Both the position numbers and the translations under genes were made by a program. A stretch of 64,000 nucleotides of DNA from a virus. The stretch's first letter is position 1, and each line of letters begins with the position of its first letter. The notes beneath the pieces were generated by a model that did no database searches, was not told the origin of the DNA, and saw only the letters and a list, made by a program, of their open reading frames with translations. This document shows, piece by piece, positions 3,520-42,363 of this stretch. The stretch lies in the UHGV virus genome UHGV-0171999, one strand, 5' to 3'.

Positions 3520-4216
<697 letters not shown>

Positions 4217-4228
4217 TTTCACAAAGTT

Positions 4229-4258
4229 GTTTACACGTTGATGAGGTAGTGATACTAT
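4229..4258 (+). promoter_or_regulatory. T4 early promoter
   Basis: GTTTAC, 18-nt spacer, TACTAT; upstream of ORF 4289. Confidence 0.6.
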
Positions 4259-4288
4259 TATCTCATCAAAATTAATTAGGAAAATAAA

Positions 4289-4603
4289 ATGAAAACTTTC
4301 AAAGAATTTACTTCTACAACTACCCCGGTTTCTACTATTACTGAAGCTACTCTTACTTCTGAAGTTATTAAAGCAAATAAAGGACGAGAAGGTAAACCAA
4401 TGATTAGTTTGGTTGATGGTGAAGAAATCAAAGGTACTGTTTACCTAGGCGATGGATGGTCTGCTAAAAGGATGGTGCTACAATCGTTATCTCTCCTGCT
4501 GAAGAAACTGCGTTGTTTAAAGCTAAACACATTTCTGCGGCACATCTCAAGATTATTGCTAAAAATCTTTTGTAATAAATATTTCACAAAGTTGTTTACA
4601 TAG
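4289..4603 (+). CDS. ipI-locus internal-protein-like gene with capsid-targeting-like leader; apparent frameshift near 4466
   Basis: N-terminus MKTFKEFT...ITEA resembles IP capsid-targeting leader; after about residue 60 the frame runs into junk through the next promoter, while another frame reads DGATIVISPAEETALFKAKHISAAHLKIIAKNLL to a stop near 4575. Confidence 0.5.
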   Translation: MKTFKEFTSTTTPVSTITEATLTSEVIKANKGREGKPMISLVDGEEIKGTVYLGDGWSAKRMVLQSLSLLLKKLRCLKLNTFLRHISRLLLKIFCNKYFTKLFT

Positions 4604-4623
4604 GGTTTTAGTTGTGATACTAT
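4594..4623 (+). promoter_or_regulatory. T4 early promoter
   Basis: TTTCACAAAGTTGTTTACA...TACTAT consensus. Confidence 0.6.
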
Positions 4624-4651
4624 TACCCTATCAACTACCGAGGAGAATAAA

Positions 4652-4837
4652 ATGAAACGTTGTGAATTAATTCGAAATGTTGCTATTGCAATTTCTGCTT
4701 CTGCTTTTAGTTTTTCAATGTTTGTTGGATTTATATGCGGATTATTAACTACAGCAGAAAACGTTTTTTCACTTGTAGTAGCATTTTTAATTGGTTTAAT
4801 TGCTATCGTTATGGATAAAATTTCTAAAGGTGAATAG
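4652..4837 (+). CDS. small hydrophobic membrane protein
   Basis: 61-aa ORF with GAGGAG Shine-Dalgarno; predicted transmembrane segments. Confidence 0.55.
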   Translation: MKRCELIRNVAIAISASAFSFSMFVGFICGLLTTAENVFSLVVAFLIGLIAIVMDKISKGE

Positions 4838-5606: not shown

Positions 5607-5679
5607 TGGGAATTAGCCAAGTTGGTAAGGCACTGGATTTTGATTCCAGGATGCAAAGGTTCGAGTCCTTTATTCCCAG
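5607..5679 (+). tRNA. tRNA-Gln (anticodon UUG)
   Basis: Manual cloverleaf: acceptor TGGGAAT/ATTCCCA, anticodon loop TTTTGAT, T-loop TTCGAGT. Confidence 0.8.
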
Positions 5680-5680
5680 C

Positions 5681-5767
5681 GCGAGAATGGTCAAATTGGT
5701 AAAGGCACAGCACTTAAAATGCTGCGGAATGATTTCCTTGTGGGTTCGAGTCCCACTTCTCGCACCA
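5681..5767 (+). tRNA. tRNA-Leu (anticodon UAA), long variable arm, encoded CCA
   Basis: Acceptor GCGAGAA/TTCTCGC, anticodon loop CTTAAAA, long extra arm. Confidence 0.8.
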
Positions 5768-5772
5768 AATTT

Positions 5773-5846
<74 letters not shown>

Positions 5847-5856
5847 ATTTAATTTA

Positions 5857-5931
5857 CTCCGTGTAGCTCAATGGCAGAGCGATCGCCTGTTAAGCGATTG
5901 GTTATAGGTTCGAATCCTATCACGTCCGCCA
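5857..5931 (+). tRNA. tRNA-like gene, anticodon GUU (Asn-type), acceptor stem mismatched as read; possible pseudo or chimeric tRNA
   Basis: Clean D-arm, anticodon arm (loop CTGTTAA) and T-arm (GGTTCGAATCC), but 5' CTCCGTG vs 3' CACGTCC leaves top three acceptor pairs unpaired. Confidence 0.45.
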
Positions 5932-5935
5932 AATC

Positions 5936-6011
5936 CGAGGCATAGCTCAGAAGGAAGAGCAAGGACCTTCTAAGTCCTAGGTCGTAGGTTCGATCCCTAC
6001 TGCCTCGACCA
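5936..6011 (+). tRNA. tRNA-Arg (anticodon UCU), encoded CCA
   Basis: Acceptor CGAGGCA/TGCCTCG, anticodon loop CTTCTAA, T-loop TTCGATC. Confidence 0.8.
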
Positions 6012-29459: not shown

Positions 29460-29933
29460 ATGTTATTGACTGGCAAATTATACAAAGAAGAAAAACAAAA
29501 ATTTTATGATGCACAAAACGGTAAATGCTTAATTTGCCAACGGGAACTAAATCCTGATGTTCAAGCTAATCACCTTGACCATGACCATGAATTAAATGGA
29601 CCGAAAGCTGGAAAGGTGCGTGGATTGCTTTGTAATCTGTGTAATGCTGCGGAAGGTCAAATGAAGCATAAATTTAATCGTTCTGGCTTAAAGGGACAAG
29701 GTGTTGATTATCTTGAATGGCTAGAAAATTTACTTGCTTATTTAAAATCCGATTACACCCAAAATAATATTCACCCTAACTTTGTTGGAGATAAATCAAA
29801 GGAATTTTCTCGTTTAGGAAAAGAGGAAATGATGGCTGAGATGCTTCAAAGAGGATTTGAATATAATGAATCTGACACTAAAACACAATTAATAGCTTCA
29901 TTTAAGAAGCAGCTTAGAAAGAGTTTAAAATGA
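29460..29933 (+). CDS. 49: endonuclease VII (Holliday junction resolvase)
   Basis: MLLTGKLYKEEKQKFYDAQNGKCLICQRELNPD... matches remembered T4 gp49; 157 aa. Confidence 0.9.
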   Translation: MLLTGKLYKEEKQKFYDAQNGKCLICQRELNPDVQANHLDHDHELNGPKAGKVRGLLCNLCNAAEGQMKHKFNRSGLKGQGVDYLEWLENLLAYLKSDYTQNNIHPNFVGDKSKEFSRLGKEEMMAEMLQRGFEYNESDTKTQLIASFKKQLRKSLK

Positions 29934-31747
29934 CAATTGAAAAAGAAATTGAAGGATTGATTCATAAAACTAATAAAGACCTTTTAAACGAGAATGCTAA
30001 TAAAGATTCTCGTGTTTTTCCAACTCAACGGGACCTTATGGCTGGTATTGTGTCTAAACACATTGCCAAAAATATGGTCCCGTCTTTTATTATGAAAGCG
30101 CATGAAAGCGGAATTATCCATTTCCATGATATTGATTATTCCCCTGCTCTTCCATTTACTAATTGCTGTTTAGTAGATTTAAAAGGAATGCTTGAGAACG
30201 GGTTTAAGCTCGGTAATGCACAGATTGAAACTCCTAAATCAATCGGCGTTGCTACTGCAATTATGGCACAAATTACTGCACAGGTTGCTTCCCATCAATA
30301 CGGTGGAACGACTTTTGCGAATGTAGATAAAGTACTTTCTCCTTATGTTAAACGCACCTATGCAAAACATATTGAGGATGCAGAAAAATGGCAAATCGCT
30401 GATGCGTTGAATTATGCCCAATCTAAAACAGAAAAAGACGTATACGATGCATTCCAAGCTTATGAATATGAAGTAAATACTCTCTTTAGTTCAAACGGAC
30501 AGACTCCTTTTGTAACAATTACATTTGGTACGGGAACTGACTGGACTGAACGAATGATTCAGAAAGCAATTCTGAAAAATCGCATTAAAGGTCTCGGTCG
30601 TGATGGGATAACTCCTATTTTTCCTAAGCTCGTTATGTTCGTTGAAGAAGGTGTTAATCTTTATAAAGACGATCCGAACTATGATATTAAGCAGCTTGCT
30701 CTAGAGTGTGCAAGCAAAAGAATGTATCCTGATATTATTTCAGCTAAGAACAATAAAGCTATCACCGGCTCATCTATTCCTGTTTCTCCAATGGGTTGTC
30801 GTAGTTTCTTGAGCGTATGGAAAGATTCGACTGGTAATGAAATTCTTGATGGACGTAATAATCTTGGTGTTGTAACACTGAATCTTCCTCGTATTGCGTT
30901 AGATTCTTATATTGGAACACAATTCAATGAACAGAAATTTGTTGAGCTATTTAATGAACGAATGGATCTGTGTTTTGAAGCATTGATGTGCAGAATTAGT
31001 TCCTTAAAAGGAGTTAAAGCGACTGTTGCTCCTATTCTTTACCAAGAAGGTGCATTCGGGGTTCGTCTTAAACCTGATGACGACATAATTGAGTTATTTA
31101 AAAACGGTAGAAGTTCAGTGTCCCTAGGATACATTGGTATTCACGAATTGAATATTCTTGTCGGTCGTGATATTGGACAGGAAATTTTAACTAAAATGAA
31201 TGCTCGTCTTAAGCAGTGGACTGAAAGAACCGGTTTTGCTTTTAGCTTGTATTCTACTCCTGCTGAAAACCTTTGTTATCGCTTCTGTAAACTTGATACT
31301 GAAAAATATGGAAGCGTAAAAGATGTTACTGATAAAGGTTGGTACACTAATAGTTTCCATGTTTCAGTAGAAGAAAATATTACTCCGTTTGAAAAGATTT
31401 CTCGCGAAGCCCCATATCATTTCATTGCAACAGGTGGTCACATTTCTTATGTTGAACTTCCTGATATGAAAAATAACTTAAAAGGTCTTGAGGCTGTATG
31501 GGATTATGCTGCACAACATTTAGATTATTTTGGCGTTAACATGCCAGTAGATAAATGTTTTACATGCGGAAGCACCCATGAAATGACTCCAACCGAGAAC
31601 GGATTTGTTTGTTCTATTTGTGGAGAAACTGATCCTAAAAAGATGAATACCATAAGAAGAACATGCGGATATCTTGGAACTCCTAGCGTTGTTCCATGGA
31701 ATTTAGGTAAAATGAAAGAAATGGTAAAACGAGTAAAACATGCATAG
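29930..31747 (+). CDS. nrdD: anaerobic ribonucleoside-triphosphate reductase NrdD, uninterrupted
   Basis: 605-aa continuous ORF; C-terminal glycyl-radical motif RRTCGYLG and Cys cluster. Confidence 0.9.
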   Translation: MTIEKEIEGLIHKTNKDLLNENANKDSRVFPTQRDLMAGIVSKHIAKNMVPSFIMKAHESGIIHFHDIDYSPALPFTNCCLVDLKGMLENGFKLGNAQIETPKSIGVATAIMAQITAQVASHQYGGTTFANVDKVLSPYVKRTYAKHIEDAEKWQIADALNYAQSKTEKDVYDAFQAYEYEVNTLFSSNGQTPFVTITFGTGTDWTERMIQKAILKNRIKGLGRDGITPIFPKLVMFVEEGVNLYKDDPNYDIKQLALECASKRMYPDIISAKNNKAITGSSIPVSPMGCRSFLSVWKDSTGNEILDGRNNLGVVTLNLPRIALDSYIGTQFNEQKFVELFNERMDLCFEALMCRISSLKGVKATVAPILYQEGAFGVRLKPDDDIIELFKNGRSSVSLGYIGIHELNILVGRDIGQEILTKMNARLKQWTERTGFAFSLYSTPAENLCYRFCKLDTEKYGSVKDVTDKGWYTNSFHVSVEENITPFEKISREAPYHFIATGGHISYVELPDMKNNLKGLEAVWDYAAQHLDYFGVNMPVDKCFTCGSTHEMTPTENGFVCSICGETDPKKMNTIRRTCGYLGTPSVVPWNLGKMKEMVKRVKHA

Positions 31748-32570
31748 GTATTATATAATTTATAAAATAACAAATATAATTAATTCAAAGGAATATATCG
31801 GTGCGCATAGCACCGATAACATAAATGATGGTTATATGGGGTCAGGAACATTGATTCGTGCCGCTTTATTAAAATATGGTAGAAAAAATTTTAATAAAGA
31901 AATTTTACATGTTTTTGATAATGAAAAACAAATGTATGATAAAGAAGCTGAACTTGTAACCGAAGAGTATTGTCTAAAAGAAAATACATATAATATTAAA
32001 CCCGGTGGAAAAGGTGGAACTGCGTATGAACAGACACTTGAACATCGCCGCAAAAATAGTTTAGCAAATAAAGGTAAAAAGAGAACAGAAGAAACTAAAA
32101 TAGCTATTTCACGTGCTTTAAAGAAATATAAACGTACGCCAGAGCATCAAGCAAATTTAAATAAAGCCGTAAGCATAGCTATGAAGCGAAAAGATGTTAG
32201 AAGTAAATTAGCTGGAGAGCGGTCTGAGAAAGATAAATTATCTATATCAAACGGTGTTAAAAAATATTACAATTCTTTGAGTGAAGAAGAACGCGAACTT
32301 CATCGCAAGCGAATTATTGAAGGTAAAAAGAATTCTCCCATGTCATTGGAATCTAGACAAAAGCTTTCAAAAGCTTTAAAAGGACTTCAAGTTGGTTCAA
32401 AAAATCCAATGTATGGAAAAATTTCTCCAACTAGCAAAACCGTTTCAGTTGACGGTATTAAATATGATTCAATTAAAAAGTGCTCAAATGCAATAAAAGT
32501 TTCTAGACATCTTATACTAAAACGCTGTAATTCTACTGATGAAGCTTGGAAAAATTGGATATTATTATGA
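31740..32570 (+). mobile_element. free-standing GIY-YIG homing endonuclease gene (Seg-like)
   Basis: 276-aa ORF with GIY-YIG motifs (YIIYKITN...KEYIG...GSG) and basic repeat C-terminal DNA-binding region; overlaps nrdD stop and nrdG start. Confidence 0.75.
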
Positions 32571-33037
32571 ATTATGATAGATTTTATCCCTGCGATTTTG
32601 TGAATGGCCCTGGATGCAGGGTTGTTCTTTTCGTTACGGGGTGTTTGCATAAATGCGAAGGGTGTTATAATAAATCAACGTGGAATGCTAGAAATGGCGT
32701 TCCATTCACTGGTGAAACACTAGAACAATTAATTGAATGTTTGAATAATGATTATATAGAAGGATTAACTATAACCGGAGGTGACCCTCTTTATCCTGAT
32801 AACAGAGACGTGATTCACTCTGTGGTTCAAACTATTAAAAATCTTTATCCAAATAAAAGCATTTGGTTGTGGACAGGATATAAGTTTGAAGATATTAAAC
32901 AACTAGAAATGCTTAAATATGTTGATGTTATTATTGATGGGAAGTATGAGAAAAATCTTCCGACCAAAAAGCTGTGGCGAGGATCAGATAATCAGCGACT
33001 TTGGTCAAATACCGATGGGGTGTGGAAACATGATTAA
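32567..33037 (+). CDS. nrdG: anaerobic RNR activating protein NrdG
   Basis: MNYDRFYPCDFVNGPGCRVVLFVTGCLHKCEGC radical-SAM motif; 156 aa from internal ATG. Confidence 0.9.
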   Translation: MNYDRFYPCDFVNGPGCRVVLFVTGCLHKCEGCYNKSTWNARNGVPFTGETLEQLIECLNNDYIEGLTITGGDPLYPDNRDVIHSVVQTIKNLYPNKSIWLWTGYKFEDIKQLEMLKYVDVIIDGKYEKNLPTKKLWRGSDNQRLWSNTDGVWKHD

Positions 33038-39741: not shown

Positions 39742-39928
39742 CATTAATGATGAATTCATAGCAAACATTGATTATACCGAAGAAGATTCTAGATATGTTG
39801 GAATAATTTATATCACATCAAAAGCAGCGCAAGGTGTTGTTTGCATGGCTGAATTTGATGAATACTTTTTAGATTATGATGATATGATAGAATGGTCTAA
39901 AAGATACATTAAAAGGAATCTTTTGTGA
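39713..39928 (+). CDS. hypothetical protein (start uncertain)
   Basis: Track ORF 39665..39928; N-terminal part overlaps the preceding gene. Confidence 0.35.
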   Translation: MHTVKFSTFDINDEFIANIDYTEEDSRYVGIIYITSKAAQGVVCMAEFDEYFLDYDDMIEWSKRYIKRNLL

Positions 39929-41613
39929 AGAATTTTAAACTTAATAGAGTAAAATATAAAAATATAATGTCAGTTGGTCAAAATGGGATTGACATTCAAT
40001 TAGATAAGGTTCAAAAAACTCTTATTACTGGACGAAATGGCGGTGGTAAGTCTACTATGTTAGAAGCCATCACATTCGGGCTTTTTGGCAAGCCATTCCG
40101 TGATGTAAAGAAAGGTCAATTAATAAACAGCACAAATAAGAAAGAACTTTTAGTTGAACTGTGGATGGAATATGATGAGAAAAAGTACTATATCAAAAGA
40201 GGACAAAAACCAAATGTTTTCGAAATCACCGTTAACGGTACACGTCTTAATGAATCTGCCAGCAGTAAAGATTTCCAAGCAGAATTTGAACAGCTTATCG
40301 GAATGTCATATGCCAGTTTCAAACAGATCGTCGTACTCGGCACGGCTGGATATACCCCTTTTATGGGCCTATCCACTCCTGCAAGAAGAAAGCTTGTCGA
40401 AGACCTGCTCGAGGTAGGAACATTAGCTGAAATGGATAAGCTTAATAAAGCACTAATACGTGAATTAAATTCACAGAACCAAGTGCTTGATGTTAAAAAA
40501 GATAGTATTATCCAACAAATTAAAATATATAATGATAACGTTGAACGCCAGAAAAAATTAACTGGTGATAACCTTACTCGTCTACAGAATATGTATGATG
40601 ATTTGGCAAAAGAAGCCAGAACGTTAAAATCGGAAATAGAAGAAGCTAATGAAAGATTAGTTAATATTGTTTTGGATGAAGACCCGACTGATGCATTTAA
40701 TAAAATCGGTCAAGAAGCATTTTTAATTAAATCAAAAATTGACTCGTATAATAAAGTCATTAATATGTATCACGAAGGTGGATTATGTCCAACCTGTTTG
40801 TCACAATTAAGTTCCGGCGATAAAGTTGTTTCTAAAATTAAAGATAAAGTTTCTGAATGCACGCATTCGTTTGAACAGCTTTCAACACATCGTGATAATT
40901 TAAAAGTTCTTGTTGATGAATACCGAGATAATATTAAAACCCAGCAGACGTTGGCGAATGATATTCGCAATAAAAAGCAATCTCTAATCACGACGGTAGA
41001 TAAAGCTAAAAAAGTTAAAGCAGCTATAGAAAAGGCATCATCTGAGTTTATTGACCATGCTGATGAAATAGCACTGCTTCAAGAAGAACTTGATAAAATT
41101 GTTAAGACAAAAACTAATTTAGTAATGGAAAAATACCACAGAGGAATTTTGACTGACATGCTCAAAGATTCTGGTATTAAAGGTGCTATTATTAAAAAGT
41201 ACATTCCATTATTTAATAAGCAGATTAACCATTATCTTAAAATAATGGAAGCGGATTATGTGTTTACATTAGATGAAGAATTTAATGAGACAATTAAATC
41301 CCGTGGTCGTGAAGATTTTAGTTATGCTTCATTTAGTCAAGGTGAAAAAGCACGAATTGATATTGCTCTTTTATTTACTTGGCGTGATATTGCTGAAAAA
41401 GTTTCAGGTGTTAAAATAAGTTGTTTATTTCTTGATGAAGTGTATGACGGTGCATTTGATGCTGAAGGTATTAAAAATGTGGCTAAAATTTTAGATGGTT
41501 TGAAGAATACCAACTTCTTCATAATTTCGCATAAAGACCATGACCCACAGGAATATGGTCAGCACATTCAAATGGAAAAAGTTGGTAGATTTAGTTTAGC
41601 TAAGATTAGTTAG
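39925..41613 (+). CDS. 46: recombination endonuclease subunit gp46 (Rad50/SbcC-like ATPase)
   Basis: Walker A GRNGGGKST, coiled coil with CPTC hook, C-terminal FLDEVYDG; apparent GTG start; 562 aa. Confidence 0.9.
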   Translation: MKNFKLNRVKYKNIMSVGQNGIDIQLDKVQKTLITGRNGGGKSTMLEAITFGLFGKPFRDVKKGQLINSTNKKELLVELWMEYDEKKYYIKRGQKPNVFEITVNGTRLNESASSKDFQAEFEQLIGMSYASFKQIVVLGTAGYTPFMGLSTPARRKLVEDLLEVGTLAEMDKLNKALIRELNSQNQVLDVKKDSIIQQIKIYNDNVERQKKLTGDNLTRLQNMYDDLAKEARTLKSEIEEANERLVNIVLDEDPTDAFNKIGQEAFLIKSKIDSYNKVINMYHEGGLCPTCLSQLSSGDKVVSKIKDKVSECTHSFEQLSTHRDNLKVLVDEYRDNIKTQQTLANDIRNKKQSLITTVDKAKKVKAAIEKASSEFIDHADEIALLQEELDKIVKTKTNLVMEKYHRGILTDMLKDSGIKGAIIKKYIPLFNKQINHYLKIMEADYVFTLDEEFNETIKSRGREDFSYASFSQGEKARIDIALLFTWRDIAEKVSGVKISCLFLDEVYDGAFDAEGIKNVAKILDGLKNTNFFIISHKDHDPQEYGQHIQMEKVGRFSLAKIS

Positions 41614-42322
41614 GTTTATATTTACAATTATCATTATGCCATCTTGATAAATTTCCGAAAGTGGTAACTTTACCACAATGGACGCAAGTACCAGTCTTTT
41701 CAGTTTTCTTGCGTCCATTTGGATTTTTCTTGCAGAAATTTCTATGCGCTGCGATAACGCATTTCTTGCCTATCATTCCGCAGAATTCGCAGGATGTTTC
41801 TTCAAGAACGATTGCTTTAAGCCCGTTTGAGATATTATTTCTGTGTTCTTTAGACATTGGCGGTCTAACTTTAGGATTGGGGTGATTTGGGCAGTTATCA
41901 AAATGCCATCGATTCATATTCCCGCTTAATCCAGACTTACCGCAATGTGGACAAGTTAGTCTTGCTTTATTAGCTACTGCATCGGACATTTTCTTTCGTG
42001 TCTCTTGGGAGAACTCTTTATTCTTTTCTATTTCCCAGAGTTTACGACGAATCCAGCCGAAAGTTTTATTGTTGCGTTTAGCGTATTTCGTAGAAACTGT
42101 CATCATGTTAGCAGCATAGACTAATTTTGGTTCAGAAGGATAAATTTTTACTAAAAGTTGATGAGCTACATAGTGCTCTTCTGGTGTTAAATCTACTAAG
42201 TTTGAAGCATCATCGCTACCATTTAAACAGCGTGGTATAATGTGATGAGATTCAGTATAGCAATCAAGTTTTCGAGATTTAGCATTAGAGATTAACTTTT
42301 CGTAAATTAGTTTATAATTCAT
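41606..42322 (-). mobile_element. free-standing HNH homing endonuclease gene (mob-like), antisense to early genes
   Basis: HNH motif ESHHIIPRCLNGSDDASNLVDLTPEEH plus repeated CPHCG/CEFCG/CVHCG zinc-finger-like modules; convergent 8-nt overlap with gene 46. Confidence 0.75.
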
Positions 42323-42355: not shown

Positions 42356-42363
42356 TATTTATA
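42356..42363 (-). promoter_or_regulatory. T4 late promoter TATAAATA on minus strand, upstream of the HNH gene
   Basis: + strand TATTTATA about 34 nt upstream of the HNH start codon. Confidence 0.55.

Follow-up and report, generated by a model that had tools for sequence, protein, structure and literature searches.

Locus and question

What is the gene that lies between nrdD and nrdG in a T4-like phage, overlapping both of them, and does it behave as a mobile element, as a servant of its neighbours, or as a relic? The question is raised by a 64,000-nucleotide (nt) stretch of the UHGV virus genome UHGV-0171999 (here the window, one strand read 5' to 3'), in which an open reading frame (ORF) of 276 amino acids (aa) occupies the interval between the two genes. 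We conclude with high confidence that the ORF in question is the T-even phage gene segH, a selfish gene for a free-standing homing endonuclease. segH between nrdD and nrdG is an already known element in its known position, named and experimentally characterised. The window is that of a T4-like phage (Tequatrovirus), and a 4.3-kb stretch around segH is 97% identical to phages 132, RB3, ACG-C40, PP01 and T6. The genes at issue are as follows.

29930..31747, plus strand: nrdD, anaerobic ribonucleotide reductase large subunit, 605 aa, uninterrupted (ORF list; Pfam NRDD 7.5e-172, Gly_radical 7e-25)
31740..32570, plus strand: segH, free-standing GIY-YIG homing endonuclease gene, 276 aa (831 nt), assigned by orthology and by PHROG 314
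32567..33037, plus strand: nrdG, anaerobic reductase activase, 156 aa (Pfam Fer4_12 4.5e-49; Radical_SAM also matched)

The ORF list and Pfam agree with the original prediction, made from the sequence alone, that nrdD is a single 605-aa ORF, and we note that its ATG overlaps the stop codon of gene 49 (ATGA). The same prediction had the middle ORF beginning 8 nt before the nrdD stop and ending 4 nt past the nrdG start, and direct reading of both junctions agrees: nrdD ends ...AAA CAT GCA TAG with the segH ATG at 31740, and segH ends ...TTA TTA TGA across the nrdG ATG at 32567, giving a 4-nt ATGA overlap. The ORF list places the nrdG start at a TTG (32546), and the true start is the ATG at 32567 (MNYDRF...), as in T6, T2 and LZ2. 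Both the 8-nt and the 4-nt overlap are also annotated in T6 (MH550421) and in the LZ2 segH deposit, AY262139.2.

Identity of the middle reading frame

The window protein is identical to the RB3 ORF at all 276 residues, matches LZ2 SegH (ABI48951.1) at 275 of 276 with R104H as the sole change, and differs from T6 SegH (AXN58115.1) by five substitutions (271/276). The segH DNA is 99.3% identical to AY262139.2, a 2.7-kb record entitled 'Bacteriophage LZ2 NrdD, SegH, NrdG' whose geometry is the same as that of the window, and which we take to be the deposit accompanying the original description of SegH. An 831-nt gene at the same junction of T6 (MH550421) is annotated segH, a cluster of 100%-identical proteins (P0001) has 74 members in a large protein collection, and Salmonella phage KM16 encodes a 91% identical 'SegH'. 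The annotated gene order is nrdD-mobC-nrdG in T4 and nrdD-segH-nrdG in T6 and LZ2. The title of the report by Sandegren, Nord and Sjöberg (Nucleic Acids Res 2005) describes SegH as a homing endonuclease whose gene replaces mobC; the mobC site is placed between nrdD and nrdG, with the GIY-YIG gene segH replacing mobC there (bioRxiv 10.1101/2022.08.31.505936), and in T4 the HNH gene mobC is listed at nrdG/nrdD with its activity not determined (PMC2988022, Table 1).

The naming of the gene in public records is not uniform. The GenBank records of RB3 (KM606994) and RB5-RB10 label segH as segD and start it 96 nt late (3927-4661 in the RB3 record), and because this start removes the GIY and YIG motifs we regard it as an annotation error; nrdG in the RB3 record is also given a late start (4736 instead of 4658). 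The nrdD and nrdG flanks of the window are 5-8% diverged from those of T6 and RB3, and the window thus presents another phage background that carries the same segH cassette.

Distribution at the nrdD/nrdG junction

A query of 400 nt from the 3' part of nrdD joined to 400 nt from the 5' part of nrdG was used for a census of the junction, and 689 records hold most of it. The junction was found in the following states.

Full-length segH, 94.5-99.5% identity: 71 records (~10%)
T4-type mobC: 32 records (~5%)
A third, unrelated HNH gene of 279 aa: 32 records, 22 of them in Tequatrovirus-like phages, those of Escherichia, Shigella, Yersinia or Salmonella (~3%)
Empty: 40 of the 48 records in an evenly spaced sample of the ranking (~80%)

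The nrdD-nrdG intervals whose comparison had been proposed with the original prediction therefore hold segH, mobC, a second HNH gene or nothing, and segH, seen in only 71 of some 689 records, is not universal at the locus. At empty sites, as in T2, the nrdD TGA overlaps the nrdG ATG directly (ATGA). At least three endonuclease genes, unrelated to one another, have settled at the nrdD/nrdG site, making it a hot spot for such genes. The third of these was seen first in Escherichia phage 235Ecol030PP (L007, 1922-2761), where it opens with a copy of the first 13 nrdG codons (MNYDRFYPCDFVN); in Yersinia phage PST it is annotated as mobC and is only 38% identical to T4 MobC over 60 aa. Since this gene and T4 mobC (MNYDR) both begin with nrdG codons, both were evidently inserted inside the 5' end of nrdG, duplicating the nrdG start.

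Conservation across the locus carries a further signature. Compared with T6 and RB3, segH is 98.7-99.4% identical and the nrdD tail 98.7-100%, against 95% for the 3' half of nrdD and 92-93% for nrdG, and better conservation of segH than of its flanks is the pattern expected of an element that has recently spread over diverged backgrounds. The closest non-orthologous homologues of SegH (47-48% identity) are encoded on a 175-kb contig and two shorter ones from distant T4-like phages, directly 3' of nrdD. They start 52 nt after nrdD, which in those phages encodes a 705-aa ATP-cone NrdD (L009, 3449-3500; L012, 364-416). That these distant relatives also directly follow nrdD points to a long-standing fidelity of the lineage to the nrdD 3' region. 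Just before the start codon of the distant homologues lies a GC-rich inverted repeat (GCGCC...GGGCGC) that resembles the hairpins masking the ribosome-binding site (RBS) of other phage homing endonucleases. A tblastn search with SegH found no other seg-like gene in the window.

The presence of segH in about 10% of records, together with its orthology and the intact motifs described below, supports the view first taken of this ORF, that it is a free-standing GIY-YIG endonuclease gene that probably spreads by intron-less homing. Among the alternatives, the one that survives best holds that segH is kept mainly as a weapon or a service to the phage, either excluding the markers of co-infecting relatives or preserving the translational coupling or regulation of nrdD and nrdG. 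The tight overlaps on both sides do put segH in the nrdD-nrdG translation chain, and partial exclusion of T2 markers is an established effect of T4 seg genes. However, nrdD and nrdG are coupled directly by ATGA in the ~80% of relatives in which the site is empty, so that reductase expression needs no segH, and marker exclusion is not a mechanism in its own right but follows from the same cleavage and repair. We therefore consider such a role improbable as the main reason for the maintenance of segH, and favor a selfish homing endonuclease gene.

Domain organization and catalytic residues

Two parts of the SegH coding region can be distinguished.

31740..32018, plus strand: GIY-YIG catalytic domain, aa 1-93, with Y8, Y19-I-G21, R40, E69 and N85 (profile, alignment and model)
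32037..32567, plus strand: helical linker containing NUMOD3 repeats (aa 100-228), then a putative I-TevI-like DNA-binding module at the C-terminus (aa 226-273) (Pfam and BLASTP)

The predicted design of SegH is an N-terminal GIY-YIG nuclease followed by a helical NUMOD3 linker and a small C-terminal DNA-binding module, a beads-on-a-string arrangement like that of I-TevI. PHROG 314, 'homing endonuclease', matches the protein at 2.4e-60, and when aa 1-100 are scanned alone SegE_GIY-YIG (PF19835) scores 31.0 bits against a cut-off of 25. NUMOD3 is well above its threshold (33.8 bits, 3.1e-08, cut-off 20.4), and I-TevI_DNA-bd falls below its own (21.1 bits, 3e-04, cut-off 27). BLASTP aligns SegH with the C-terminus of I-TevI at an E value of 3e-04, the similarity being weak at both ends of the protein. 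The GIY and YIG motifs take the forms YIIY8 and EY19-I-G21, with the spacing of about 10 residues, on the first two strands, that is usual in the superfamily. Across 49 aligned SegH homologues Y8, Y19, G21, E69 and N85 do not vary, and Y8, Y19, G21 and N85 are still unchanged when I-TevI is added (50 sequences); in pairwise and multiple alignments N85 aligns with I-TevI N90, and E69 is one column off I-TevI E75.

An AlphaFold2 model, built from the alignment without the I-TevI row, has predicted local distance difference test (pLDDT) values of 96-98 over residues 1-90, a helical linker, and confident placement to about aa 230, with pLDDT below 50 over aa 231-276. The modelled secondary structure (strands at 4-12, 18-25 and 51-59, helices at 37-46 and 62-72) forms a three-stranded sheet with helices. 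The top three Protein Data Bank (PDB) matches of the model in Foldseek are the I-TevI catalytic domain (1MK0/1LN0; probability 1.00, target-normalised template modelling score 0.59-0.62), with nothing else credible, and a sequence search of PDB chains with full-length SegH returned chance matches only (E>0.1).

Several observations weigh against an active homing endonuclease, and some of them could be taken to suggest that segH is a decaying, catalytically dead remnant, kept only because it is wedged between two coupled genes of an essential pathway. The generic Pfam GIY-YIG profile (PF01541) scores 16.5 bits against a cut-off of 22.6, and the top NCBIfam match, TIGR01453 ('group I intron endonuclease'), also lies below its curated cut-off. 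SegH orthologues carry T37 where the family consensus is K, the column of SegH R40 holds K or R in only 34 of 50 sequences, and the equivalent of the catalytic Arg27 of I-TevI is uncertain, the Seg family being without that helix segment; the C-terminal 45 residues, moreover, are those modelled at low confidence. Decay nonetheless sits poorly with a full-length ORF in about 71 records at 94.5-99.5% identity, with the retention of every invariant family position, with a catalytic domain modelled at pLDDT 96-98 that matches I-TevI, and with a protein one residue away from the deposited LZ2 SegH, and we regard a dead remnant as very unlikely. Degeneracy of the catalytic residues, raised at the outset as an observation that would count against this reading, is not seen: the motif positions are intact in both alignment and model, and SegH, as far as alignment and model reveal, is not visibly degenerate. 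Nor does anything else that we computed contradict the identification of the gene.

We also note that within segH, across the codons for the YIG motif (YIGAHSTD), a terminator scan flagged on the minus strand a perfect inverted repeat of 9 bp around a 5-nt loop (TATCGGTGC GCATA GCACCGATA) at 31796-31818.

The nrdD intron

Because T4 nrdD carries a group I intron, the corresponding position in the window bears on the origin of the middle ORF.

30459..30487, plus strand: position at which T4 nrdD carries its group I intron, here unoccupied (between 30467 and 30468), the same allele as in T2, T6 and RB3

The window nrdD is colinear with the two T4 exons (96.7% and 93.9% identity), and the alignment passes uninterrupted through the insertion site at 30467/30468, as expected of the intron-less gene first described. 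The empty-site allele at this homing site of I-TevII, shared by the window, T2, T6, RB3 and BCPShso_001, differs from the T4 exon junction by seven substitutions in nine consecutive codons, all of them synonymous and much denser than the 3-6% divergence elsewhere in nrdD. The last alternative holds that the middle ORF is not free-standing but a relic of a group I intron, with its endonuclease, at the end of nrdD; it has practically no chance of being correct. TIGR01453 ('group I intron endonuclease') does lead the NCBIfam matches of the ORF, below cut-off, and the architecture of the protein is the same as that of intron-encoded I-TevI. Yet Rfam shows no intron family at gathering score across the window and no family at E<=1 between 31500 and 32800, and the ORF fills the whole nrdD-nrdG interval and overlaps both ends, leaving no room for an intron core structure, so that a group I intron-encoded endonuclease is refuted as far as these RNA family searches and ORF overlaps allow.

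The free-standing segH also has no evident relationship to the state of the nrdD intron. The T4-type intron is present in only 25 records, mostly T4 strains, and co-occurs with segH in EC128, RPN226, fPS-2 and U5. Since it is both rare and found alongside segH in these four phages, lack of the intron is the usual state of nrdD and does not depend on segH, and we reject a functional tie between the two. One element of the original prediction was wrong: it described the endonuclease of the T4 nrdD intron as degenerate, and that enzyme, I-TevII, is listed as active (PMC2988022, Table 1 and text), where it is I-TevIII, of the nrdB intron, that is degenerate. In the segH-positive phages HY03, vB_EcoM_CE1, FL23 and FL44 nrdD holds about 1.05 kb of additional sequence, and the annotation shows a split nrdD with a second homing endonuclease. 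These phages are not among the 27 records that match the T4 nrdD intron, and a different insertion therefore seems to interrupt nrdD there.

The nrdD tail and probable exchange of endonuclease genes

The end of nrdD is unusual in phages that carry segH, and three features are of concern.

31672..31747, plus strand: recoded nrdD 3' tail, 76 nt, the last ~22 codons, ~60% identical to T2/T4 and travelling with segH
31723..31738, plus strand: putative 16-nt insertion GGTAAAACGAGTAAAA relative to T2-type nrdD, placed by gapped alignment
31739..31748, plus strand: 10-mer CATGCATAGG, which contains the segH ATG and the nrdD TAG and is common to T2/T4-type nrdD, where it encodes (I)MHR

Outside the tail nrdD is about 95% identical to T2/T4, compared with about 60% over the 76 nt of the tail, and the NrdD protein ends TPSVVPWNLGKMKEMVKRVKHA in the window and NPNERGFNLGKNKEIMHRVKHQ in T2/T4. 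The segH-type tail is found in 81 records, which comprise the segH phages and at least six mobC-type recombinant records: BCPShso_001, BCPEco_001, SHFML-11 (two records), BEU50 and ELT1. The NrdD proteins of the distant phages keep a T2-like ...KEIIHRVKHN ending, which identifies the segH-linked tail as the derived form. Its sequence suggests that the 16-nt insertion shifted the nrdD frame, such that the gene would now end ...VKRVKHA-TAG, with RVKH regained and the stop codon inside codons 2-3 of segH. SegH begins MHR-YYIIYKITN and its distant homologues begin MFYTIYKITN, which fits the capture of an nrdD Met codon as the segH start, and an account of the nrdD tail by capture and insertion is plausible.

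The 10-mer appears to be where endonuclease genes have been exchanged. In Shigella phage BCPShso_001 (L006, 1900-1945), the one recombinant that we read, a segH-type tail is joined to T4-type mobC, with the switch exactly at CATGCATAGG and a 12-nt remnant of the T4-type nrdD end left between the nrdD stop and mobC. For the other five recombinant records a junction at the 10-mer is likely from the tail match, which ends there, and mobC is shown only in BEU50 and ELT1. A 10-mer is shared by chance in 523 of 20,000 shuffles (~2.6%), a frequency that is not decisive alone, but the mobC recombinant breaks exactly there, and we reject pure chance as the explanation. The sequence of the BCPShso_001 junction is, in our view, evidence for replacement of one endonuclease gene by another through microhomology.

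These features can be combined into a fuller history, in which the 76-nt tail would be part of the mobile cassette and record its assembly, and we offer it tentatively, as it is less likely than not to be correct as a whole. In such a history, segH would have been joined in frame to a T2-type nrdD tail just past ATG-CAT-AGG, adopting the nrdD Met598 codon as its start, and the later 16-nt insertion (31723-31738) would have shifted the nrdD frame and recreated the conserved ...RVKH C-terminus and a TAG stop within segH codons 2-3. The recoded segment at 31672-31722 might then mark the SegH recognition region and partly protect the carrier, and the retained 10-mer CATGCATAGG would serve as the crossover point for segH/mobC swaps such as those of BCPShso_001, BCPEco_001, SHFML-11, BEU50 and ELT1. 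The recoded tail linked to segH and the 10-nt swap microhomology may be the only details of this locus that do not trace to the literature, as judged from sources other than the original 2005 description. They are small, testable details of how endonuclease genes splice into overlapping genes without damaging them.

Expression and homing

A late promoter or an RBS-masking hairpin is known for I-TevI, I-TevII and segB. Neither is apparent at segH: no match to the T4 late promoter consensus (TATAAATA) was found near the gene and no sigma-70-like site adjoins its start, and the RNA around the segH start, examined for an RBS-masking hairpin, folds no better than shuffles (z = +1.8). segH thus appears to be a promoter-less cassette, most likely carried on an upstream transcript, as are segC, segF, segG and several mob genes (PMC2988022). 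From the arrangement of the genes, segH most likely rides on a gene 49-nrdD-nrdG transcript with its translation coupled to that of nrdD. The coupling would run through the 8-nt overlap, and nrdG would in turn be coupled to segH through ATGA.

The orthology, domain content, fold, sporadic distribution and conservation above that of the flanks were computed here; cleavage and homing are taken from the literature. In cells co-infected by a phage without segH, SegH would cut both strands of that phage's genome near the nrdD/nrdG junction, and recombinational repair would copy segH and adjacent markers into the cut genome. In the 2005 work SegH reportedly had endonuclease activity in vitro close to its own locus, cleaving both its own DNA and that of phages without segH, and homed in mixed infections. 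Its authors reportedly also discussed a possible selective advantage.

Other features of the window

Gene 46 (39925-41613) and rpbA/gene 45 are separated by a 238-aa HNH mob-like ORF (41606-42322, minus strand) that runs antisense to the genes around it. The N-terminal 125-140 aa of its product share 44% identity with T4 MobB and 37% with MobC, and an exact T4 late-promoter consensus (TATAAATA) is situated at 42356-42363 on the minus strand, about 33 nt upstream of the ATG of the ORF. T4 is not known to have an endonuclease gene at the corresponding position. At 5607-6011 there is a transfer RNA (tRNA) cluster in which ARAGORN finds four genes (Gln, Leu, Gly and Arg), with Rfam adding a fifth at 5860-5924; T4 has eight tRNAs, more than the cluster in the window.

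Comparison with known endonucleases

The finding of segH in this phage matters little beyond correct annotation, as its position, its overlaps and its patchy occurrence agree with those already published. The gene is that of LZ2 and T6 (AY262139.2, AY262137.2), at the same nrdD/nrdG position and with the same overlaps, and the window protein differs from theirs by one to five substitutions. The census has a useful by-product, namely that in Tequatrovirus-like phages the nrdD/nrdG junction is contested by no fewer than three endonuclease genes that are unrelated to one another. One of them, T4 mobC, occupies the same junction as segH, but MobC, an HNH protein of 210 aa, is unrelated to SegH and shows no similarity to it in BLASTP, and mobC was inserted after the first nrdG codons, duplicating them (MNYDR...), whereas segH is joined to the nrdD tail.

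I-TevI of the td intron and I-TevII of the nrdD intron of T4 share with SegH the GIY-YIG domain, the linker and, as predicted for SegH, a small C-terminal DNA-binding module, but they are intron-encoded and only 25-26% identical to it. Relative to I-TevI, SegH is without the Arg27 helix segment and has a longer, NUMOD3-rich linker. The T4 proteins SegA-SegG, free-standing GIY-YIG endonucleases associated with intron-less homing, belong to the same family as SegH (SegE_GIY-YIG, PHROG 314), and the DNA of segH resembles T4 segB only over about 160 nt (73%) within the catalytic domain. A promoter-less lifestyle between conserved genes is shared by segH with segC, segF and segG (PMC2988022). SegA-SegG are nonetheless encoded at other loci (segF at 56/soc and segG at gene 32, for example), and therefore have targets other than that of SegH.

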